From Elusimicrobiota bacterium (GTDB lineage Bacteria > Elusimicrobiota > Elusimicrobia > FEN-1173): a stretch of 64,000 nt of DNA. Position 1 is the first letter of the stretch, and every line of letters starts with the position of its first letter. Under the pieces are notes generated by a model. That model was not told the origin of the DNA. It made no database searches and worked only from the letters and a program-made list of their open reading frames with translations. The stretch is taken from positions 48,241 to 112,240 of the forward strand of contig JADJZR010000008.1 of assembly GCA_016715645.1 (NCBI GenBank). The letters are read 5' to 3'. Position numbers and translations under genes: made by a program. Shown piece after piece: positions 1 through 48,710 of this stretch.

Positions 1-1248
1 GCCAGGGGAGGGACCATTTTTCTCGGGGTTAACGATGAAAGTCAAATTATCGGCGAAAAGCTCACCAACCGGATGAAAGCGGAAATTCTGTCCCTGGCGA
101 GAAAGTGTGAACCGCCGGTGCCCCTCTCAAAAATTTCGCAGATCGGCAAGACGGTCGCTATCGAGGTGTCGGAGGGTCCGAAGAAACCTTACAGTTGCTC
201 CTCCGGCTATTTTCGCAGATTGGACGCGGTGACTCAAAAGATGACCCATGAGGAAGTGGGTCTTTTGTTCAGGAACGCCGATGAACTCTCGTTTGAGGAG
301 CGGCCTTGCCGGGACGTCTCCTGGACCGACATTTCAGAGGAAAAAATTAAAATTTTTTTCGAAGAAGCCGGAATCCATGCGGGAGAAAGAACCCCGCGGG
401 ATATTTTGACCAGTCTCAATCTCGCGTCGAAAGAAGGCATCAAAAACGCGGGCGTTCTTTTCTTTGCCCGAGAACCCCGACGTCCTCTGTTGCAATGCGA
501 AGCGATCCTTGTTTCTTTCAAGGGCACGAAGGGCGTGGATATTTTGGACCGAAAAGACATACAAGACGACCTCCGGACCCAGTATCAAGAGGCCATGGTT
601 TTTTTAAAACGGCATTTAAGCGTCAGAACCAATATCCAGGGGTTCGATCGCAAAGATTACTACGAAATCCCTCTGGAAGCGTTGCGCGAGGCGGTGGCCA
701 ACGCCGTCATTCATCGGGACTACGGGGTGCGCGGGACGAGCTTGATGGTGGAAGTTCACGAGGACCGGGTGGTGATCAAAAATCCGGGGGGGTTTCCAGC
801 GGGCATGAGCCGGCAGAAAATCGGAGATCTCTCGGTGCGGCGCAACGAATTGATCGCCGACATGTTTGCCCGCATGCACCGGGTGGAACGCATGGGTTCC
901 GGATTTAAGCGGATTCGCGAAAGCATGGAAAAGGCCGGGTTGCCCTTCCCTAAGATATCCAGCAACGGTTTTTTCATTATTGAATTTGCCAGGCCCCCGC
1001 TGGCTGAGCAGGCCGGGAATCAAAGTTCGGTGAAAAGTTCGGTGAAAAGTTCGGTGAAAATTGTTGATCTCATCCGCCAATACAAGGACATAACAATTCC
1101 TGTGATGGCGGAAAGATTAAATTTGACAACACGCGCTGTTGAAAAACAACTGGAGAAATTGCAGACGACCGGCCGTGTCCGCCGTGTGGGTCCCGACAAG
1201 GGGGGGCATTGGGTAATTACGGAGATTAAAGGTAGTGAAAACACGTGA
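1..1248 (+). CDS. Schlafen/AlbA_2 + HATPase_c_4 + C-terminal wHTH protein (COG2865, often annotated RecG-like transcriptional regulator); 5' end lies outside the window
   Basis: The reading frame is open from base 1 and joins ORF 73..1248. Motifs present: GTIFLGVNDES (AlbA_2), ALREAVANAVIHRDYGVRGTSLMVEV (HATPase_c_4), and a C-terminal HTH-like segment. An in-frame SSVKx3 tandem repeat occurs near the C-terminus. Confidence 0.7.
   Translation, partial: ARGGTIFLGVNDESQIIGEKLTNRMKAEILSLARKCEPPVPLSKISQIGKTVAIEVSEGPKKPYSCSSGYFRRLDAVTQKMTHEEVGLLFRNADELSFEERPCRDVSWTDISEEKIKIFFEEAGIHAGERTPRDILTSLNLASKEGIKNAGVLFFAREPRRPLLQCEAILVSFKGTKGVDILDRKDIQDDLRTQYQEAMVFLKRHLSVRTNIQGFDRKDYYEIPLEALREAVANAVIHRDYGVRGTSLMVEVHEDRVVIKNPGGFPAGMSRQKIGDLSVRRNELIADMFARMHRVERMGSGFKRIRESMEKAGLPFPKISSNGFFIIEFARPPLAEQAGNQSSVKSSVKSSVKIVDLIRQYKDITIPVMAERLNLTTRAVEKQLEKLQTTGRVRRVGPDKGGHWVITEIKGSENT
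1024..1059 (+). repeat. Perfect 12-nt x3 in-frame tandem repeat (agttcggtgaaa) encoding SSVK-SSVK-SSVK
   Basis: Read directly from the sequence; it lies inside the COG2865-like CDS. Confidence 0.9.
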
Positions 1249-1718
1249 ACAGGGCCATGCCACGCAATGGGGTAACGAATAGGGTCATAGCATCTTCCGG
1301 GAGTCCAATGAACCGGCCCATCGGAGAAATCCCGAAGGCGGTGAGTCTCCGCCGAATTCGAACTTCAAGTGACGCGCGCCCGCCGTCCCCCACCGCCCTG
1401 TTCGAATCCCTCTCCGAATCGCGGATCTCTGTTCTTTATCTAGCCCGCCAGGCCAAAGAAGGCAAGAACACTGACCTGGCCAAGCGATTGACCGCCCAAG
1501 GCCAATCCCTGCGCCAGGAAATAACCCGAATTCGCCAAACAGCGACCGCCGTCTGGACCAAAGAAACCCAATCGCTCATCGCCCAGGCCGGGACCGCCCA
1601 ATCCGAACTTGCTAAACTCATCAAAGACGCTGACAAAAGCGCAAAGAAAACGAAGGCCTTTGCCCGCGCCCTCGCCGCCGTATCAAACGTCCTCGCGTTA
1701 GCGAAAAAGGCGATCTAA
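1245..1718 (+). CDS. Hypothetical small alpha-helical protein, paralog A of a duplicated pair (true start may be the internal Met near 1308)
   Basis: ORF 1245..1718. Shares the conserved block STALFESLSESRISVLYLAR...AQSELAK...ALA..S.VLALAKK with ORF 2247..2612. No recognisable family. Confidence 0.45.
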   Translation: MNRAMPRNGVTNRVIASSGSPMNRPIGEIPKAVSLRRIRTSSDARPPSPTALFESLSESRISVLYLARQAKEGKNTDLAKRLTAQGQSLRQEITRIRQTATAVWTKETQSLIAQAGTAQSELAKLIKDADKSAKKTKAFARALAAVSNVLALAKKAI

Positions 1719-1728
1719 TGGAATCCGC

Positions 1729-2250
1729 ATGAAACCCCATTCAGGCTATATTCGATTGCTTAAGGCCATAGAAGGGACCAATGCCCACATGGCTGGTCGC
1801 GTTGCGACTGTGGTCAATCAGGCTCTGACCCTGCGGAATTGGCTGATCGGATCTCATATAGTGGAATATGAACAGCATGGTTTAGATCGGGCGAGATATG
1901 GAGTTCGGTTGCTGGATCGACTCTCCAAAGATCTGAAAAAGAAAGGGGTCCGCGGTCTGGATGTTCGTGCGCTGAGGGACTGTCGGTTGTTCTTTCGTTT
2001 CTATCCTCAAATTCGGGGGTCAGTGACCCCCGAATTGGTGGTCCCGCCACACCTAACGGCATTACTGAACCACTGCAGTGAAAAAGACCAGACCGTTGTT
2101 GAATTCACAACGGCTGGGATGGACAACAAGCTGTTTGTGTCCCGATATCAAACCTCCCTCCCATCGGTTGACCAGTTAAAAAAACTAGTGGAAGCCGATC
2201 GTGCCCAATTGAAATATAGTGGACCCTCTGTGAAGGGGAACCTCCCATGA
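1729..2250 (+). CDS. DUF1016 (YhcG) N-terminal-domain protein; short form that lacks the PDDEXK nuclease half
   Basis: Pattern ...VNQALTLRNWLIGSHIVEYEQHG..RARYGVRLLDRLSKDL...GLDVRALRDCRLFFRFYP resembles the YhcG N-terminal domain. At 173 aa it is about half of a full-length DUF1016 protein. Confidence 0.45.
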   Translation: MKPHSGYIRLLKAIEGTNAHMAGRVATVVNQALTLRNWLIGSHIVEYEQHGLDRARYGVRLLDRLSKDLKKKGVRGLDVRALRDCRLFFRFYPQIRGSVTPELVVPPHLTALLNHCSEKDQTVVEFTTAGMDNKLFVSRYQTSLPSVDQLKKLVEADRAQLKYSGPSVKGNLP

Positions 2251-2612
2251 ATCGGGTTTCAAATTCAACACACCAATCCCCCTCCACCGCCCTGTTCGAA
2301 TCCCTGTCCGAATCGCGGATCTCTGTCCTTTATCTGGCCCGCCGGGCCAAAGAAACCAAGGACATGGCCCTGGCCAAAGAATTAACCGAAAAAGGTCAAT
2401 CGCTCAAAATTGAAATGGCCAGAATTCGCCGAACACTCACTGTCGAATGGACCAAAGAGGCCGCCGCCCTTCTGAAACGCTCAAAAACCGCCCAATCCGA
2501 ACTGGCCAAACATGTGGCGGACGCGGAAAAAAGCGCCCGGAAAACAAAGGCCCTCGCCCGGGCCCTAACCGCTGTGTCAAAGGTCCTTGCGCTCGCGAAA
2601 AAGGTTCTTTGA
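2247..2612 (+). CDS. Hypothetical small alpha-helical protein, paralog B of the duplicated pair
   Basis: About 50% amino-acid identity to ORF 1245..1718, with a near-identical ~70-nt 5' segment. Its stop overlaps the next start (TGATG). Confidence 0.5.
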   Translation: MNRVSNSTHQSPSTALFESLSESRISVLYLARRAKETKDMALAKELTEKGQSLKIEMARIRRTLTVEWTKEAAALLKRSKTAQSELAKHVADAEKSARKTKALARALTAVSKVLALAKKVL

Positions 2613-3838
2613 TGGAATCCACGGACTTTCTCATCGTCGGCGCCGGAATCGTGGGGCTGGCCGTAGCCAATGAGTTACGTCGACGCCACCCCAAAGCCAA
2701 CATCGTCGTTTTGGAAAAGGAAACGGAAGTGGGTTGCCACGCCAGTGGCCGAAACAGCGGGGTGTTGCACTCGGGTATTTACTATTCGCCGGGGACACTC
2801 AAGGCGAAATTTTGCGCGGAAGGCGCCCGCCGAATGTTGGCGTTCGCTAAAGAAAATGGTGTGGCCCATCGCGTGGCGGGGAAAGTGATTCTCGCTGTCG
2901 GACCGGAAGACCTCCCCGGACTGGAGCGGTTGGAACAAAACGCCAAAGCCAACGGGATTCGCGCCGTCCGTTTGTCCGCCCAAACACTCATGGAGATCGA
3001 ACCCCACGCTACGCCAGGAGAAGCGATCCATTGTTTGGACACCGCGGTGGTGGACGCCCCGGCCGTGGTGCAAGCGTTGGCCGAAAAAGTGGAATTAAGC
3101 GGAACTCGTTTTTTCTTTGGCGAAGAGGTGATCGAGGCAGAAGAAACCGCGGTAATAACGCGTTCTGGTCGAAAGTTGAAATTTGAAAAGATGATTAATT
3201 GTGCGGGCGCCCACGCGGATAAAGTGGCCAGGCTGTTCGGCCTGGCCAAGGATCATATTTTGGTTCCCTTCAAAGGGCTCTATTGGAAACTGCGTAATGG
3301 GGCCGACCATTGGGTTCGCGAAAGCATCTACCCTGTTCCGGACCTCAATTTTCCGTTTTTAGGCATTCACCTGACCCGCGGCGTGGGGGGCGACGTCTAC
3401 GTGGGCCCCACCGCCATTCCCGCTTTCGGAAGGGAAAATTATGGACTGCTGGAAGGAATCACCCCTGGCGAAAGCGCTCAAATAATGGGACGATTAACGA
3501 AAATGTATTTCCAAAAAGACCCCACGTTTCGACGACTGGTCAACCGTGAGATGGGTCATTACGTGAAAACCGGTTTTCTCAAAGCGGTTCAACGTTTGGT
3601 GCCCGCTCTTTCGGTGGAAGATCTGGTCCCATCGAACAAAGTCGGCATCCGCCCTCAACTGGTCCGCCGTACCGGTGAACTGGAAATGGATTTCCATATG
3701 GAACAGACCGACAATTCGTTGCATGTGTTGAACGCGATTTCACCGGCGTTCACCTGTTCCCTCGCCTTTGCCGAAAAAATCGTTGACGAGGTGGAGAGAC
3801 AAGGCGGTGAAGTCAAAGAAGAGGTCAAGGTCGCATGA
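2612..3838 (+). CDS. FAD-dependent oxidoreductase, L-2-hydroxyglutarate oxidase (LhgO/YgaF)-like
   Basis: ATG at 2612 (MESTDFLIVGAGIVGLAVANEL, an FAD-binding GxGxxG). CHASGRNSGVLHSGIYYSPGTLKAKFC closely matches the LhgO family. The upstream in-frame extension of ORF 2447 is probably not translated. Confidence 0.65.
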   Translation: MESTDFLIVGAGIVGLAVANELRRRHPKANIVVLEKETEVGCHASGRNSGVLHSGIYYSPGTLKAKFCAEGARRMLAFAKENGVAHRVAGKVILAVGPEDLPGLERLEQNAKANGIRAVRLSAQTLMEIEPHATPGEAIHCLDTAVVDAPAVVQALAEKVELSGTRFFFGEEVIEAEETAVITRSGRKLKFEKMINCAGAHADKVARLFGLAKDHILVPFKGLYWKLRNGADHWVRESIYPVPDLNFPFLGIHLTRGVGGDVYVGPTAIPAFGRENYGLLEGITPGESAQIMGRLTKMYFQKDPTFRRLVNREMGHYVKTGFLKAVQRLVPALSVEDLVPSNKVGIRPQLVRRTGELEMDFHMEQTDNSLHVLNAISPAFTCSLAFAEKIVDEVERQGGEVKEEVKVA

Positions 3839-4467
3839 GAAAAAATAAAAGGCCCGTTTGGAAAAACCCCACCGGTCGTCACGCCATGAGTTTCCTCGTG
3901 AACTTGGAAGAGATTGAAAAAGAGTTCCAGGTGACGAACAAACACAAAAAGCCGCTCTCGCTCGTGGACGGGTTTGCCCAAGCGATGGGCTTGATGGTGG
4001 ACGCCGCGCGCCGGAATAAGAAGCTCATTTTTGTGGGAAACGGGGGAAGCGCCGCGATTGCCAGTCACCAAGCCGTGGATTTTTGGAAGAACGGGGGAAT
4101 TAAAGCCCTGACGTTTAATGACGCAAGTCTTTTAACGTGCCTAGGGAATGACTGCGGTTATGAGAACGTTTTTTCCGAGCCGGTGCGCCGATTCGCCGAG
4201 TCGGGGGATGTGGTGTTGGCCATCAGCAGTTCGGGTCGTTCGCCCAATATTCTCAACGCCGTCACCGCAGCCCGTTCGGTGGGGAGCCGTGTTATTACTT
4301 TCTCAGGATTTACCGGTGACAATCCTCTTCGGAAAATGGGTGACGTGAACTTTTTCGTTCCCGTGCGGGCTTATGGGTTGGTGGAAGTCAGTCATCTCAT
4401 CCTGATCCATGCCATGTTGCGGGAAATCATCTACATCAATCCTCATGTGAAGAAATCGGGATATTGA
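3835..4467 (+). CDS. gmhA: SIS-domain sedoheptulose-7-phosphate isomerase (GmhA-like)
   Basis: Matches the GmhA/DiaA SIS family: KLIFVGNGGSAAIASHQAVDF, VVLAISSSGRSPNILNAV, ITFSGFTG. The ATGA overlaps the upstream stop; an alternative start is the Met at 3886. Confidence 0.65.
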   Translation: MRKNKRPVWKNPTGRHAMSFLVNLEEIEKEFQVTNKHKKPLSLVDGFAQAMGLMVDAARRNKKLIFVGNGGSAAIASHQAVDFWKNGGIKALTFNDASLLTCLGNDCGYENVFSEPVRRFAESGDVVLAISSSGRSPNILNAVTAARSVGSRVITFSGFTGDNPLRKMGDVNFFVPVRAYGLVEVSHLILIHAMLREIIYINPHVKKSGY

Positions 4468-5471
4468 GGAACAATGTGATAAAAAAAGCGGTCGTCACCG
4501 GCGGGTTGGGGTTTATCGGAAGCCACCTTGCGGAAGCTCTATTGGCTCGGGAGATTCAAACGACCATTGTTGACAACGCCTCCACCGGTCGACACGAAAA
4601 CATTCGCACGTTCGCGAACCACCCTCTCCTGACGGTCCTCCAGGCGGACGTGGCTTCTGACGATTTGGCGGGAGGGTTTGGCAACGCCGACGTTGTTTTT
4701 CACTTGGCCGGGTTGGCGGACATCGTTCCTTCGATCCAGCGTCCCATGGATTATTGCCGGACCAACATCACGGGAACGTTGCGTGTTTTGGAAGCGGCCC
4801 GGCAGGCCAAAGTCTCCCGTGTCGTCTATGCCGCCTCCTCGTCCTGCTATGGCCTCCCCGACATTTTTCCAACACCGGAGACCGCCCCCATCCGTCCCCA
4901 ATACCCCTACGCGCTCTCGAAGTGGATGGGCGAAGAGGCCGTGCATCATTGGGGGCGTGTCTACGGTCTAAAAACCACGTCGCTTCGACTTTTTAATGTG
5001 TACGGGCCCCGTTCCCGCACGACCGGAGCCTACGGCGCCGTTTTTGGTGTTTTTCTGGCCCAAAAGCTGGCAGAGAAACCGCTAACCATTGTTGGAGATG
5101 GAACCCAACAGCGAGATTTTATTTATGTCTCAGATGTGGTGGAGGCGTTCCTGGCCGCTGGAGAATCGACTTTGTCAAGGGAAGTTTTTAATGTGGCGGG
5201 GGGAAACCCGGTTGCGGTGAACACGCTGGCCGGTTTGGTGGGAGGTTCTCGGGTGGAAATTCCAAAACGTCCCGGAGAACCGGATGTGACGCACGGGGAC
5301 ATCACAAAAATTAAATCGGCCTTGGGCTGGGCGCCGCGCGTGTCGTTTGAGCAAGGGGTCGCCCGGGTCATGGCGCGTCTGGACGATTGGCGGAATGCCC
5401 CCGTGTGGACCCCCGCGTCGATAGCGGAAGCCACGGCGGATTGGTTTGCCCATTTGGGCAAGGGGAAATAA
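4464..5471 (+). CDS. NAD-dependent sugar epimerase/dehydratase (extended SDR)
   Basis: VVTGGLGFIGSHL Rossmann motif, YxxxK (YPYALSK), typical WcaG-like length. Confidence 0.75.
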   Translation: MRNNVIKKAVVTGGLGFIGSHLAEALLAREIQTTIVDNASTGRHENIRTFANHPLLTVLQADVASDDLAGGFGNADVVFHLAGLADIVPSIQRPMDYCRTNITGTLRVLEAARQAKVSRVVYAASSSCYGLPDIFPTPETAPIRPQYPYALSKWMGEEAVHHWGRVYGLKTTSLRLFNVYGPRSRTTGAYGAVFGVFLAQKLAEKPLTIVGDGTQQRDFIYVSDVVEAFLAAGESTLSREVFNVAGGNPVAVNTLAGLVGGSRVEIPKRPGEPDVTHGDITKIKSALGWAPRVSFEQGVARVMARLDDWRNAPVWTPASIAEATADWFAHLGKGK

Positions 5472-6994: not shown

Positions 6995-7080
6995 GGAGCC
7001 CCTTTTTTTCCTTCCCCTCTTGGGGGAAGGTGCCCCAAAGGGTCGGATGAGGGGAGGAATTTTTTCTTTAAGGAGTTAAA

Positions 7081-10487: not shown

Positions 10488-11534
10488 ATGACGCCCGGTG
10501 AAGTCGCTTCAGCCGTCTCCCGGGCCACGGGCGAGCGTCCCAAAGAGGTCGTTCTTTTAAAAGGCGTCGGGAACAATGTGGTGGCAAAGGTGAACATGGC
10601 CGCTGGTACTCGGGTCGCAAAAATCTATTTTCGTCACCCGGCCGACCCCCGGGATCGTTTGGGAACCGAATATGACATGTTGACGTTTTTGTGGGAGGCC
10701 GGGGTTCGCCGGGTTCCCCAGCCCTATGGGATGTTTCGCGACGACTCTTTGGGGCTTTATGAGTTCATTGATGGAGTTCCGTTGGCTCCCGGCGGCGTCA
10801 CATGGAAAGAGGTAGAACAGCTCATATCGTTTTTGGGGGAAATGTATAATTGCAAGGGTCGTCCAGGAGCGCAGAGACTGCCGACCGCTTCGGAGTATGC
10901 CCCTTCGTTGGCGGATTACCGGGAAAACGTTTCCCGACGATTTCAGCGTTTGCGACAAGGGATCGACCCAAAAATGGAGCCGACAGCAGCCGATTTCGTG
11001 AACGGCCCGCTCTTCCGGGCCCATGAAGACCTGGCCCGTTTTCTGGCGAATTGGTCGAAAGTGGGGATGAATCTTGACGACGTGTTGGATCCAGCCCAGC
11101 GAACGTTAAGTCCGGCTGATCACGGGTTTCAGAACACGCTGGCGCGAAACGGACAGTTGGTGTTTCTGGATTTTGAATACGCGGGGTGGGACGATCCAGC
11201 CCAGGTGATTGCCAACGCCTGCCTGCACCCGGCGGTGCCCATGCCGACGGCTTTTGTTCCTCGATTTGTCGAGGACCTGTCGGAACGGCTGAGGGGAGGG
11301 CTCGCGTTTCGAAGACGTTTACGGTGTCTTTACCCCCTGCTGGCGTTCAAATGGAGTCTCATCATGCTGAACGAGTTTCTTCCCGTAGACCGTGACCGAC
11401 GTGCGTTTACGGGGGCGGATGTGGAGTTGAAAAAAGGAATCCAGTTAAAAAAGTCAATTCTTCAACTGGATAAGGTCAAAGAAGCTCTGGCCGACGATTT
11501 TTTTCTCAAGGAGATGGTTCATGGAACAAATTGA
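10488..11534 (+). CDS. Aminoglycoside-phosphotransferase-fold (APH/ChoK-like) kinase, likely a sugar kinase
   Basis: HGFQNTLARNGQLVFLDFEYAGWDD matches the Brenner HxDhxxxN...D motif of the APH family. Confidence 0.6.
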   Translation: MTPGEVASAVSRATGERPKEVVLLKGVGNNVVAKVNMAAGTRVAKIYFRHPADPRDRLGTEYDMLTFLWEAGVRRVPQPYGMFRDDSLGLYEFIDGVPLAPGGVTWKEVEQLISFLGEMYNCKGRPGAQRLPTASEYAPSLADYRENVSRRFQRLRQGIDPKMEPTAADFVNGPLFRAHEDLARFLANWSKVGMNLDDVLDPAQRTLSPADHGFQNTLARNGQLVFLDFEYAGWDDPAQVIANACLHPAVPMPTAFVPRFVEDLSERLRGGLAFRRRLRCLYPLLAFKWSLIMLNEFLPVDRDRRAFTGADVELKKGIQLKKSILQLDKVKEALADDFFLKEMVHGTN

Positions 11535-12183
11535 TTTTATTCAAGCGCTCAATAAATCGACCAAACGCGACTACGTGGGCCGAGTGACGGAGTTCCCGAA
11601 GCCAGAGGCGGCGAAAATCGCCAAGCAATACGGAAAAGACTATTGGGATGGGGACAGAAAGTTCGGTTATGGGGGATACAAATACGATGGTCGATGGCTC
11701 CCGCTGGCCCAAACCATCGCCAAACACTATGGGATAAAAGCAGGCGACAAAATTCTTGATGTGGGGTGTGGCAAAGGATTTTTGCTTTACGAGTTCACCC
11801 GAGCGGTTCCTGGCGTGCAGGTCGCGGGCATCGATATTTCCACTTACGCCATTGAAAACGCCAAGGAGGAGGTTAAGCCGTTCCTGAAAGTGGGGAACGC
11901 CGTCAAACTCCCCTTCGCAGACAAAACCTTCGATTTTGTCTATTCCAACACGACATTCCACAATCTCCATAACTACGAACTTTTTGATGCGGTAAAGGAA
12001 GTCGAGCGCGTAGGGAAAAAAAACAAATACCTTTGCGTCGAATCCTACCGGAACGACGAAGAAAAAGCCAACTTACTGTATTGGCAACTCACCTGCGCCA
12101 GTTTCTATACCCCCCACGAGTGGGCGTGGTTCTATAAACTGTGCGGATACACAGGGGATTATGGTTTCATATACTTTGAGTAA
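11521..12183 (+). CDS. Class I SAM-dependent methyltransferase
   Basis: ILDVGCGKGFLLYEF (motif I), followed by a Methyltransf_11-like core. Confidence 0.65.
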   Translation: MEQIDFIQALNKSTKRDYVGRVTEFPKPEAAKIAKQYGKDYWDGDRKFGYGGYKYDGRWLPLAQTIAKHYGIKAGDKILDVGCGKGFLLYEFTRAVPGVQVAGIDISTYAIENAKEEVKPFLKVGNAVKLPFADKTFDFVYSNTTFHNLHNYELFDAVKEVERVGKKNKYLCVESYRNDEEKANLLYWQLTCASFYTPHEWAWFYKLCGYTGDYGFIYFE

Positions 12184-12186
12184 CCT

Positions 12187-12261
12187 ATGAAATTCAACGT
12201 CGCCGTCCTTGTCGAGAGCAGGGAGCCTAATGTCATCAAAGATTTTGAGAAACCACGATGA
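12187..12261 (+). pseudogene. 24-codon remnant of an MDR alcohol-dehydrogenase N-terminus (MKFNVAVLVESREPNVIKDFEKPR*)
   Basis: Close match to the N-terminus of the intact dehydrogenase at 13843 (MKFKAAVLVESRNPLVIEELE). It is terminated by TGA, which overlaps the ATG of the next gene. Confidence 0.5.
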
Positions 12262-13712
12262 AGGTCAAACGCGCTCTAAAACGAAATGTTTCCTCCCCTC
12301 CGTCGCTTTTAGAAAATCTGCAGGCTTGGGTGCGTTTAGGGGAGTCTGAAATTTTGGAGTTTAAACGCACGACAAATGAACGGAGAGAGGCTGTTCGCTC
12401 GCTTTGCGCAATGATCAACCATCGAGGGGGACGTGTGTTGTTCGGAGTTTCCTCTGCCGGAGAGATCCTCGGGCAGCAGGTCAGTGATCGCACCATTGAA
12501 GAATTGGCGCAAGAAATCAAGGAGATCGACCCCCCTGTTTTTCCATCCATCGAACGCATTGTCGTTTCCCGGGAGCGGGAAGCAATCGCCGTAACCGTTT
12601 TACCCGGGCCGTCAGGTCCCTACACCTACAAAGGGCGCGCCTATCGGCGCGTGGGGAACGCGAGTCTCGCGATGTCGAAGGATGAATGCAATCGTATTTT
12701 ACTCGAACGATTGCATGGCCAGAGCCGCTGGGAAAATCAGTTGTTGGAAGAATGGTCCGTCAAAGATTTGGACATTGGCGAAATCACGCGGACCATTGAC
12801 GAGTCCGTGCGCCGCGGTCGATCTGAGGATCCAGGCACGCGAGACCCCGAGATTATTCTTCGCGGGCTTGGCCTCATGAAAGGGAAGCGTCTTTTTCGAG
12901 CCGCCGCCGTTTTATTTGGCCGTCGCGACCTCCTCGCAGCGGAGTATCCCCAATGCCTCCTTCGGGTCGCTCGGTTTCGCGGGTCAGACAAGACAGTTTT
13001 CGTTGATAACCGTCAGTTTCAAGGCAACGTGTTTGACTTATTGTCCCATGCGGAGAGATTCCTGCGCGATAATTTGCCCGTCGCGGGGCGCGTGCTCCCA
13101 GGCCTTTTTGAACGAGTGGATGATCCTCTGTACCCTTCTCTTGCCTTGCGTGAATCTCTGGCCAACGCTTTTTGCCATCGGGATTACAGCATGGGGGGCG
13201 GCTCGGTTTCGCTCGCTGTTTATGACGACCGATTGGAGATCACGTCTTCAGGCCCTCTGCATTTTGGGCTCACAGAGGAAATGCTGTTCCTTCCACACGA
13301 ATCCCTTCCCTGGAATCCCCTGATCGCAAGGACCTTCTATCGGCGGGGCATCATTGAATCCTGGGGACGCGGCACTTTGAAAATGGCCGAGTTAATGCAC
13401 GCCGCCGGTCTTCCCCACCCGGAAATTGTTGAGGCCAGTGGATGCGTTATCGTTCGATTCCGACCGAAAGAGAGCCTCCCTCTTCATGCATCGGGGGACT
13501 TAAATGCGCAACAAAAAAATATAATCGCCCTCATCGTGGCCACCCCCATCGGGCTTTCGTTGCGTGACATTCGGAAAGGGATCCCATCCTCTCCGCCTGT
13601 GTGGAAACTGAAAAGGGAACTGGAGACGTTGAAAAATCTAGGCAAACTCGCGACGCGCGGGCGTGGCCTCGGCGCTCGCTGGCTCCTCCGAAAGGAGCCG
13701 AACGCCCCATGA
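12258..13712 (+). CDS. Schlafen/AlbA_2 + HATPase_c_4 + wHTH protein (COG2865), paralog of the gene at 1..1248
   Basis: ESEILEFKR (AlbA_2); ALRESLANAFCHRDYSMGGGSVSLAVYDDRLEITSSGPL (HATPase_c_4); C-terminal wHTH-like region. Confidence 0.7.
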   Translation: MKVKRALKRNVSSPPSLLENLQAWVRLGESEILEFKRTTNERREAVRSLCAMINHRGGRVLFGVSSAGEILGQQVSDRTIEELAQEIKEIDPPVFPSIERIVVSREREAIAVTVLPGPSGPYTYKGRAYRRVGNASLAMSKDECNRILLERLHGQSRWENQLLEEWSVKDLDIGEITRTIDESVRRGRSEDPGTRDPEIILRGLGLMKGKRLFRAAAVLFGRRDLLAAEYPQCLLRVARFRGSDKTVFVDNRQFQGNVFDLLSHAERFLRDNLPVAGRVLPGLFERVDDPLYPSLALRESLANAFCHRDYSMGGGSVSLAVYDDRLEITSSGPLHFGLTEEMLFLPHESLPWNPLIARTFYRRGIIESWGRGTLKMAELMHAAGLPHPEIVEASGCVIVRFRPKESLPLHASGDLNAQQKNIIALIVATPIGLSLRDIRKGIPSSPPVWKLKRELETLKNLGKLATRGRGLGARWLLRKEPNAP

Positions 13713-47639: not shown

Positions 47640-48710
47640 ATGGAGTTGATTGACTTGTCCCGTTATGCAACCATTCGTTCACCCGCAATCATTCCACCGT
47701 TTTCTTCTCTTCGGAATTCTGATTCCATCTCATTCACCCCAAATTTGGAGTTAGTGGAGACACCTGAAAATCTACATCGTGTGGACCAACTGATAAAAGC
47801 AGGTTGGCGCGTGGCTCGCGTGCATCGCATTCCGCCCGACACCCCGTTCCCTTTTCGAAAAACATTCCCCCGCCGAATTCTTTTCGAAATGACAAGCAAT
47901 TGCAACTACAGGTGTCGTATGTGTCCTCAAAACAATCTCACTCGTCCCCGAATCCATATGGAGGGGGATCTGTATCGAAGGGGTTTAGATGAAATTGATG
48001 TTCATGGTGTTGAGGGATTGTGGCTCTACCATCTCGGCGAATCTATTTTACATCCCGAATTTCGAGAAATACTCCAATACGTTAGCAGTAAGAAACATTT
48101 AGGCACAGTTTGGATGAGCACCAATGGGCGATATTTTGACGAACAAATGGCACGTTTTGTCATGGAATCTTCGGTCGATTATGTCAACTTCTCTGCCCAT
48201 GGGGTGACTCAATCTGCCTATGAAAGCGTCATCCCCGGTGGGGCTTTTGAGATTGTCCAAAGAAACCTTGAAGCGTTCTATAGGCTCAAAGGATCCCCTC
48301 GAATCAAACGAAAACCATTCATCCATACACAAATGATCGAGCAGGAATCAACCCAGGGCGAAGTGGATTCATTTATCGCACAGCACATCGATCGAGCCGA
48401 CCTAGTGAGCATAAACATGCTGGAATACGTCAATCTTCCCAAAAATCAATTTGGAATCCAACAGAGGGATCGTCCCCCTTTGCGTTCCTGTTTGCGAGTA
48501 GAACGAAACGATTGCTTCATTTGTTCTAACGGCAGCGTTACTCTTTGTGACGCCGCCTACAACGGAGAAATTTTCTTAGGGGACATCCATACTCAGACCA
48601 TTGAAGAGATTTGGAACGGGGAAAAAAGGAAAGAAATCTTGGAACTGAGTCGCTCCGGGCGTATGGGCGAAATCGAATTTTGCCGTCACTGCACCGATTA
48701 CGACATTTGA
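47640..48710 (+). CDS. Radical SAM enzyme with C-terminal SPASM/twitch-like Cys cluster
   Basis: CNYRCRMC (CxxxCxxC) in FEMTSNCNYRCRMCPQN, and a C-terminal CFICSNGS...CDAAY...CRHC. Confidence 0.7.
   Translation: MELIDLSRYATIRSPAIIPPFSSLRNSDSISFTPNLELVETPENLHRVDQLIKAGWRVARVHRIPPDTPFPFRKTFPRRILFEMTSNCNYRCRMCPQNNLTRPRIHMEGDLYRRGLDEIDVHGVEGLWLYHLGESILHPEFREILQYVSSKKHLGTVWMSTNGRYFDEQMARFVMESSVDYVNFSAHGVTQSAYESVIPGGAFEIVQRNLEAFYRLKGSPRIKRKPFIHTQMIEQESTQGEVDSFIAQHIDRADLVSINMLEYVNLPKNQFGIQQRDRPPLRSCLRVERNDCFICSNGSVTLCDAAYNGEIFLGDIHTQTIEEIWNGEKRKEILELSRSGRMGEIEFCRHCTDYDI

Follow-up and report, generated by a model that had tools for sequence, protein, structure and literature searches.

Why does a small gene of an uncultured Elusimicrobia bacterium occur as two diverged copies, one on either side of a broken DUF1016-N gene, directly in front of a sugar-biosynthesis operon? 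The two copies lie near the start of a 64,000-nt stretch of DNA (hereafter the window; positions 48,241 to 112,240 of contig JADJZR010000008.1), which is part of a 180,350-bp contig belonging to a metagenome-assembled genome (MAG). All genes between positions 1 and 5500 are on the + strand, and the order at the start of the window is an AlbA_2-like gene, the first copy of the small gene, a stub of the L-2-hydroxyglutarate oxidase family gene LhgO, a decayed YhcG gene, the second copy and LhgO itself. We call the small gene and its protein S, and its two copies, the only ones contained in the window, A and B. They were compared with contigs labelled L001–L023 and S proteins labelled P0001–P0024, all from metagenome or MAG assemblies; locus scans for S returned two loci from genomes and one partial locus from metagenomes. 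In the reading that we favour and consider fairly likely, the two copies stand at the LhgO-proximal end of an insertion hotspot that works without an integrase and whose S copies, as homology arms, allow cassettes to be gained, swapped and probably also lost.

Copies A and B form a true paralogous repeat, as had been proposed in the original prediction, which was made from the letters of the window. The repeat is direct and ungapped with an offset of 894 nt, pairing 1386–1728 with 2280–2622 at 73.5% identity over 343 nt. At the protein level the copies are 64% identical (76/119) over their alignable part; the earlier estimate of about 50% is obtained only if the non-homologous N-terminal extension of the open reading frame (ORF) beginning at 1245 is counted, and NCBI starts copy A at the ATG at 1308, giving 136 amino acids (aa). 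A 70-nt block within the repeat is 93–94% identical between A and B compared with 68% for the remainder of the gene, and nucleotide alignment of the copies places the block well above the gene around it (94% vs 68%). The near-identity that first drew attention to the locus is therefore real (p about 1e-4), with the correction that 1392–1461 pairs with 2286–2355, not 2285–2354, and has five mismatches there, four being the count in the best 70-nt window. When the mismatch positions were shuffled 20,000 times, ≤4 mismatches in a 70-nt window had p = 1.5e-4, and p = 1e-4 when shuffling was confined within codon positions. Third-position mismatches number 3/25 in the block vs 41/85 in the rest (Fisher p = 0.001), and the synonymous divergence (dS) is 0.16 vs 0.91.

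The block and the rest of the gene also differ in their nearest relatives. Over the 70 nt, A shares 94–96% of positions with B and P0024, 91% with L4 and no more than 64–81% with the beta-type genes of other genomes, whereas outside them its identity is 68% to B, 86% to P0020 of a sister contig and 76% each to L13 of a distant genome and to P0023; the rest of B is nearest to P0008 (88%), followed by L1 and L4 (82%). An alignment of 13 S copies resolves two body types, alpha (B, P0008, P0015, L1 and L4) and beta (A and P0020 and, more loosely, L12, L13, L19a and P0023), each of which is also found as the sole S copy in other genomes. On these affinities copy A is a chimera joining an alpha-type 5' block to a beta-type body. 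Among distant orthologues the 70-nt block is 60–80% identical and no better kept than the rest of the gene, which rules it out as a universal nucleotide-level site, and it is not conserved in copies P0008 and P0023. Folding of the block and of the 3' end with the stub as single-stranded DNA, on both strands, was no better than that of shuffles (z +0.1 to −2.0). Given the incongruent identities, the lack of universal conservation and the lack of a single-strand fold, the block is best explained as a conversion or crossover tract common to several array copies, its similarity and its nearest relatives conflicting with the rest of the gene at synonymous sites as well, as expected of gene conversion.

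Both copies end in ...GCGAAAAAGGnnnTnTnATGGAATCC, with the pattern GCGAAAAAGG...ATGGAATCC, so that the shared AAAAAGG...ATGGAATCC end noticed earlier is present in each. After copy B the motif supplies the ATG at 2612, the real start of LhgO, whose product scores 380.2 bits against the NF008726 equivalog model (cut-off 299). After copy A the corresponding sequence, ATGGAATCCGCATGA (1718–1732), reads MESA*, and its first 12 nt are the start of the LhgO alleles MESADFL of L012 and L013, unlike the window's own LhgO, which begins MEST... The dead stub is thereby supported as the vestige of an LhgO start, in line with the original prediction. Beyond it the correspondence between the two sides ceases: 1729–2279 and 2623–3173 show no homology, and the sequence between the repeats is without counterpart after copy B.

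The ORF lying between the copies (1729–2250, 173 aa) had been identified as a DUF1016-N fragment, and matches DUF1016_N (PF17761) over residues 24–96 with 54.3 bits against a cut-off of 32.8, while YhcG_C (PF06250) is matched only at profile positions 116–152 of 157, with 21.5 bits, under its cut-off of 32.5. Compared with the intact gene of L012 it is missing positions 80–508 and approximately 529–775 of that gene, an in-frame loss of about 681 nt (227 codons) that takes in the PD-(D/E)XK core, the junctions falling at 2054/2055 and 2070–2074. Intact YhcG relatives match the PADLOC candidate system PDC-S02 at 1e-100 to 1e-146, and in L019 the same gene is damaged otherwise, being split into 201 and 76 aa. 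To judge from its sequence, the ORF is a pseudogene or remnant and not a functional YhcG member. A 27-nt palindrome 18 nt before the deletion junction is single in the window and present in two copies in L012 and in two, 51 nt apart, in L019; it may have promoted the YhcG deletions.

Copies A and B are the end of a longer series. A protein search located a third S copy (IPN19_06395) just upstream of the window and three more on the same 180-kb contig, and the accessions in order are MBK8870662, 665, 668, 671, 673 (A) and 675 (B), with 2, 2, 2, 1 and 1 genes between them; written as proteins, this gives P0015, two genes, P0023, two genes, P0008, two genes, P0012, one gene, A, one gene, B. From this order the AlbA_2-like gene at the left edge of the window would lie between P0012 and copy A. 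Copies identical to P0015, P0023 and P0008 occur in three other assemblies, L006, L007 and L008, whose layout runs from MarR-like, peptidase M4, 447-aa and 304-aa genes to S, MNT/HepT, S, a 42-aa LhgO stub and YhcG#1, and continues with S, Fic-like_C plus Fic, S, AlbA_2 (485 aa), S, the MESA* stub and YhcG#2 up to the contig end. PADLOC assigns the cargo YhcG to PDC-S02, Fic to SoFic and MNT to PDC-S09, and the cargo genes start at the S stop or a few bases away from it.

Other genomes hold simpler versions of the same locus. The single-copy state is represented by L001 and L003, with a 312-aa gene, S and LhgO and no cargo, while L004 has an AlbA_2-like gene, a 317-aa gene and a single S followed by ATGGAATCC, which runs into a remnant of a Fic-like_C start, with no LhgO. 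The architecture of the window recurs in L019 and L020 (303-aa gene, S, MESA* stub, YhcG#2, an internally deleted second S, LhgO), and L012 and L023 have YhcG#2, an S with the copy B leader, and LhgO, the leader MNRVSNSTHQSPS being common to copy B, P0007 (L012) and P0009 (L023). L013–L018 carry a 304-aa gene, YhcG (392 aa), S, an LhgO stub of about 46 nt, a further YhcG (373 aa), an 84-nt remnant of the S 3' end, and LhgO. The 373-aa gene of L013 is flanked by a 122-nt direct repeat (81% identical) comprising the S 3' end and the LhgO 5' end, and its insertion between S and LhgO appears to be an independent event of the same kind. L022 has another YhcG type followed by S and LhgO, and a remnant of that type precedes the first S of L006. 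The YhcG#2 cassette beside LhgO also occurs in the most distant genomes and is decaying in several, whereas the other cassettes are confined to the lineage of the window and L006, a distribution that fits, without proving, growth of the array away from LhgO. Other positions in the array differ between near-identical contigs.

At least five mutually distant YhcG/DUF1016 types (27–45% protein identity among those compared) adjoin S in different Elusimicrobia genomes, the paralogues being located at L013 6826–9573, L022 1–414, and L006 6778–6858 and 8886–10004.

The segment between the copies is far more similar across genomes than its surroundings. From 1696/1716 to 2286 the window is 92–100% identical to L006, L012, L019 and L023, compared with only 77–79% identity to L012, L019 and L013 for LhgO and 7 kb of downstream genes, and the block must therefore have been exchanged horizontally. 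Against L006 the stretch 1696–2124 is 99.5–100% identical, and the S copy and cargo to the left of 1696 differ; against L012 and L023 identity is 95–100% from the YhcG tail through the copy B leader to 2286 and 75–80% from 2287 through S and LhgO. The left limit of high identity, about 1716 against L019 and about 1696 against L006, is in the conserved 3' end of copy A, and the ends of the exchanged block thus fall within the two conserved parts of S. These limits indicate that a unit of stub, YhcG#2 and S leader moved between lineages whose flanks differ by about 22%.

The junctions between S and cargo are variable. The right ends of S copies fall at S codon ~90 (P0015, which is fused to a methyltransferase 3' fragment), at S codon ~105 (P0020), and at LhgO +9 (before Fic-like_C), +12 (before YhcG#2), ~+46 (L013) and +110 (before YhcG#1); the left ends vary as well, and there is no single crossover nucleotide common to every junction, as would mark an attachment (att) site. 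A search for recombinase genes 6–10 kb to the left and right of the array was negative in L001, L006, L013 and the window, the remainder of the genome lying outside this search.

The array, its chimeric S copies, a horizontally exchanged YhcG block that breaks off inside S and the varying junctions are what the sequences show; from these products we infer the recombination pathway and the direction of events as follows. S would be a resident core gene directly upstream of LhgO, at the head of the sugar-biosynthesis operon, and foreign single genes or gene pairs (YhcG, MNT/HepT, Fic, Schlafen-AlbA_2) would have been inserted beside it. Each insertion would leave an extra partial or complete S copy, sometimes with a few LhgO bases, and the result would be an S-cargo-S-cargo-...-S-LhgO array on one strand. 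With no recombinase taking part, the S copies would provide portable homology for general recombination, either by a Campbell-type single crossover of circularised DNA carrying S and cargo or by homology-facilitated illegitimate recombination of linear DNA. Gene conversion between S copies would follow, the 70-nt near-identity of A and B being such a tract, and the same process could swap cargo between strains and delete cassettes. Deletion of the YhcG remnant by recombination between the A and B repeats, which the original prediction had envisaged, is plausible.

If this account is correct, a defence island would have been assembled without a dedicated recombinase, with copies of a core gene supplying the homology for further gain, exchange and loss, and the locus would offer a sequence-level example, from a little-studied uncultured phylum, of how defence hotspots form and turn over. 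Duplicated small genes beside defence genes could then be insertion scars and not functional paralogues. As annotated in the MAG, the YhcG ORF and some of the S copies are pseudogenes. A stronger version is tentative and on balance doubtful: the S repeats would constitute an integrase-free cassette system, general homologous recombination doing an integron's job with the 5' block and the 3' end as homology arms, and defence genes would circularise out of one array and insert by S in another genome, thereby assembling and reshuffling a defence array ahead of a surface-polysaccharide operon. In a sharper form of this proposal, YhcG/DUF1016 nucleases would seed the hotspot by cutting near S.

Several points weigh against the hotspot reading. 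Every sequence comes from a metagenome or MAG assembly, in which repeat arrays are prone to misassembly; short-read contigs such as L006 and L007 stop within the array, as they would if repeats cause assemblies to break. The array to the left of the window is known through accession order and sister contigs and was not read directly, and the junction of the AlbA_2-like gene with copy A is seen in the window alone. Neither a circular intermediate nor a single-copy A × B deletion recombinant was found. The Campbell-type and homology-facilitated illegitimate routes are indistinguishable here, later conversion blurs which copy was resident and which incoming, and the recurrence of four or five different YhcG paralogues at one spot is not explained by a neutral hotspot alone. 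Finally, the ratio of nonsynonymous to synonymous substitution rates (dN/dS) of array copies is below 1 (0.38–0.47), and some extra copies may therefore still be under selection.

The history first proposed for the locus, an in-situ tandem duplication of S together with the LhgO start, followed by YhcG insertion, prolonged divergence and, recently, conversion of the 5' 70 nt, would account for the in-register repeat at an offset of 894 nt, ATGGAATCC included, as well as for the conversion tract, and the 48-nt insertion shared by P0008, P0012 and P0015 (see below) does point to an in-situ origin of some copies. We nevertheless consider it unlikely for A and B. The repeat unit is not contiguous, 1729–2279 having no counterpart after 2622; over its body, A is closer to S genes found in other genomes than it is to B; the LhgO allele that the stub after A matches (MESA..) is foreign, that of the window itself beginning MEST..; five different cargos are interspersed among the six copies; and the YhcG block is 92–100% identical across genomes with flanks at 77–79%. 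The paralogous repeat, the vestigial LhgO start, the decayed gene and conversion or crossover survive from the earlier scenario; a tandem origin is not supported, in view of the non-contiguous unit, the array of about six copies, their different allele types and the exchanged YhcG block. Site-specific recombination, in which S copies or a core of them (the 70-nt block, the ATGGAATCC end) served as attachment sites of an integron-like array or of decayed integrative elements with the integrase acting in trans, is an improbable alternative of similar standing. The short same-orientation cassettes of one gene or pair each, bounded by the same repeated element, are what it would produce, chromosomal integron cassettes typically carry cargo of this sort (toxin-antitoxin, Fic, nucleases), and the ATGGAATCC boundary recurs in three contexts, before LhgO, Fic-like_C and YhcG. 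Yet no locus read has a recombinase gene within 6–10 kb of the array, both repeat boundaries are at different nucleotides in different cassettes, and the repeat is a protein-coding gene of about 340 nt, in which the 70-nt block and the 3' end fold no better than shuffles as single strands; neither distant orthologues nor P0008 and P0023 conserve the 70-nt block.

The YhcG/DUF1016 nucleases could themselves be the mobile agents, homing-like and selfish, targeting the surroundings of S and leaving the repeats as by-products of break repair. That at least five distant YhcG types stand within a few hundred bases of S (the 392-aa and 373-aa genes of L013, YhcG#1 of L006, YhcG#2 of the window, L012 and L019, and the L022 type), and that the YhcG#2 block is far more alike between genomes than its flanks, would suit such a process; we still give it little credence, since unrelated cargos (MNT/HepT, Fic, AlbA_2) hold equivalent positions with the same flanking S copies, homing as a rule leaves no flanking duplications of 120–380 nt, and the YhcG of the window is dead. 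To our knowledge, moreover, no mobility function has been established for DUF1016, and a literature search linking DUF1016 with defence brought up incidental mentions only. The least probable explanation, which we regard as very unlikely, is that the extra S copies are kept because they function, as partner or regulator of the neighbouring cargo or through translational coupling, with the 70-nt block under selection. Most copies are open-frame with dN/dS of 0.38–0.47, cargo genes begin at the S stop or only a few bases from it, and the block codes for the most conserved part of the protein, all of which would agree with a function; against it, L001 has S without any cargo, the cargos are mutually unrelated, and several copies have a frameshift, a truncated end or a 16-aa insertion. 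In the block, A and B are conserved at synonymous sites too, whereas orthologues are not, a pattern that marks conversion and not protein-level selection.

Arrays of related design have been described in other bacteria. The sequential displacement model was developed for type VI secretion system (T6SS) effector-immunity arrays of Vibrio cholerae and for strings of orphan toxin/immunity modules of Rhs and contact-dependent inhibition (CDI) systems (Kirchberger et al. 2017, PMC5361080), and the mechanism proposed for these orphan-module arrays is homologous recombination at one end combined with illegitimate joining, with no dedicated recombinase (PMC5361080). They are the closest published analogue of the S array. 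In both cases heterogeneous, horizontally acquired modules are strung at one locus, each with a repeated piece of a conserved gene before or after it as the homology anchor, and older pieces decay. In orphan-module arrays, however, the anchor is part of the gene whose variable end (toxin C-terminus plus immunity gene) is exchanged, whereas here it is a whole separate small gene, the cargos are stand-alone defence or toxin-type genes, and the resident S-LhgO junction is regenerated each time.

Other systems share some of these traits. Integrons and clusters of attC sites lacking integron integrases (CALINs) consist of short, mostly single-gene cassettes in one orientation with a recurring element and commonly with toxin-antitoxin cargo, the attC sites being imperfect palindromes of 60–140 nt that fold as single strands and have conserved R and L boxes. 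The S array resembles them in its short one-orientation cassettes separated by a recurring element, with expression presumably from upstream, and differs in having no IntI within 6–10 kb (the rest of the genome was not searched), no attC-like single-strand fold, and as its recurring element a coding gene of about 340 nt whose boundaries shift from cassette to cassette. Integrative elements accrete in tandem at gene ends, as is known from tRNA-gene islands, from e14 in icd, and from cis-mobilisable elements (CIME) and integrative and conjugative elements (ICE) at fda in Streptococcus thermophilus. As in that process, array boundaries carry partial duplicates of the target gene and the copy by the downstream gene keeps the operon intact, but accretion uses one defined crossover core and an integrase, whereas the S array has variable extents and no integrase nearby. 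Like defence islands and hotspots, the locus holds variable sets of defence-type genes (PDC-S02/YhcG, SoFic-like Fic, MNT/HepT, Schlafen-AlbA_2) between core genes, with content varying between close strains; hotspots of the commonly described sort, however, lack a core-gene copy in each gap between inserted genes. In naturally transformable bacteria, insertion-duplication of the Campbell type and homology-facilitated illegitimate recombination are laboratory-defined mechanisms. Both would be expected to yield cargo between two hybrid homologous copies, event-specific extents of duplication and outer junctions of microhomology type; here, unlike in the laboratory, the routes would be deduced from products alone.

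The S protein itself is small and helical. Copies A and B have 121–136 aa and the resident core gene 116–127 aa, and the AlphaFold model (pLDDT 82.5) consists of a helix at 12–37 and then one long helix at 40–120. Searches against Pfam gave only DUF7934 at E = 0.0096, below its cut-off, and those against NCBIfam and PADLOC no match; the best hit among Protein Data Bank (PDB) sequences, E = 0.002 over 35 residues of a cytochrome construct, is uninformative, and Foldseek returned no PDB structure with E < 1. A word-indexed search recovered 24 relatives and an exhaustive hidden Markov model (HMM) search of 1.8 billion representatives 31, with lengths of 90–160 aa; among the 24, all those with an organism name are Elusimicrobia MAGs and most are unnamed, and the library of representatives behind the 31 carries no names. 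Between orthologues dN/dS is 0.21–0.27, and S is therefore a real coding gene; for copy A the ratio is 0.38 against B and 0.47 against P0020. In most genomes read, S is directly upstream of LhgO with overlapping stop and start, the exceptions being L004, in which no LhgO follows S, and L019, in which the LhgO-proximal S is internally deleted. Decay among the extra copies takes the form of a 48-nt insertion (three copies), deletions of 4 and 9 codons, a 77-nt frameshifting deletion and altered ends. The 48-nt insertion is in frame (ISTSGAPSAALSE[SG]GR), is shared by P0015, P0008 and P0012 (L006 6980–7030 and 10148–10195) and is absent from all single-copy genes, which is evidence that some of the copies arose in situ from others in the array.

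Table 1. Position, strand and supporting observations for features of the S locus and other elements in the window.
Feature	Position	Strand	Observations
Schlafen/AlbA_2-type cargo gene, HATPase_c_4 + winged helix	1..1248	+	5' end outside window; Pfam HATPase_c_4 3.6e-21 and helix-turn-helix (HTH) domains
Upstream flank travelling with copy A	1228..1385	+	no homology to copy B flank; 84–88% identical to L006 11993–12151
S copy A, P0014, IPN19_06405	1308..1718	+	100% match to P0014; ORF extendable to GTG 1245
Near-identical 5' block of copy A (conversion/crossover tract)	1386..1461	+	mismatch, identity-matrix, permutation and dS tests
Dead LhgO start, ATGGAATCCGCATGA = MESA*	1718..1732	+	12 nt match LhgO starts of L012, L013
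Decayed YhcG/DUF1016 gene, PADLOC candidate PDC-S02, nuclease core deleted	1729..2250	+	Pfam; alignment to intact L012 gene
27-nt palindrome in YhcG remnant	2010..2036	.	AATTCGGGGGTCAGTGACCCCCGAATT
S copy B, P0001, IPN19_06415, alpha type	2247..2612	+	stop overlaps LhgO start
Near-identical 5' block of copy B	2280..2355	+	mismatch and permutation tests; right end of exchanged YhcG block ~2286
LhgO, L-2-hydroxyglutarate oxidase family, first gene of sugar-nucleotide/polysaccharide cluster	2612..3838	+	NCBIfam NF008726
Rfam match to Caulobacter small RNA (sRNA) CC0196	3223–3276	-	antisense within LhgO; 34.9 bits, gathering score 35, E = 4e-5; probably fortuitous
GC-rich intergenic element, 48 nt	7006–7053		after PfkB/cytidylyltransferase gene; short inverted repeat (..CCTTCCCCTCTTGGGGGAAGG..)
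Methyltransferase gene	11521–12183	+	3' end (12049–12146) 78% identical to a 98-nt fragment fused to truncated P0015 (L006 7186–7283)
Second Schlafen-AlbA_2/HATPase_c_4 gene	12258–13712	+	484 aa, inside sugar-biosynthesis cluster

The features of the locus and of its neighbourhood are collected in Table 1. In L006 the counterpart of the flank upstream of copy A lies between the Fic gene, which precedes it, and S copy P0020, and the motif R.TS.ARPPSP is common to this flank and to protein P0012. Three further ideas on the origin of these sequences were given up. Local alignments of the copy A flank with the native upstream (304-aa) gene were no better than shuffles (p 0.06–0.13), and the idea that the flank retains a remnant of that gene was dropped. 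An arrangement after the e14/icd model, with copy A as the native 5' end and B as a displaced 3' fragment, was rejected, as the B leader is native-like and found in single-copy contexts. Derivation of the L006 AlbA_2 start from the S start (29 nt, 79%) was set aside as a coincidence, since the copy of that gene which the window carries elsewhere begins in the same way.

A scan of positions 1–5000 against Rfam gave no match related to the S repeats, scans of 1000–3000 for sigma-70 promoters and terminators gave none above shuffle expectation, and the GC profile has no compositional island. Downstream of LhgO follow genes for SIS, epimerases, PfkB/cytidylyltransferase and transketolase halves. 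In protein sequence the AlbA_2-like gene that opens the window shares 46–48% identity with genes of 443–452 aa adjoining peptidase M4 in L004, L006 and L019, and 26% with the cargo of 485 aa in the L006 array; it has partial PADLOC matches to Schlafen regions associated with prokaryotic Argonaute (pAgo). Three perfect tandem copies of a 12-nt unit (AAAGTTCGGTGA, coding for SSVK three times) are at 1022–1060, in the linker before its winged-helix domain.

Traces of array cargo also occur further downstream in the window. Positions 12242–13468, which overlap the second Schlafen-AlbA_2 gene, are 88% identical to the AlbA_2 cargo of the L006 S array (12479–13705), so that the same cargo type occupies different loci in sister genomes. 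The methyltransferase fragment at L006 7186–7283 is, by its similarity to the gene in the window, a scrap of a polysaccharide-cluster gene inside the array. The GC-rich element at 7006–7053 is 96% identical, in inverted orientation, to L006 8177–8224, between HepT and P0023, and the 25-nt core tested is present once in the window.

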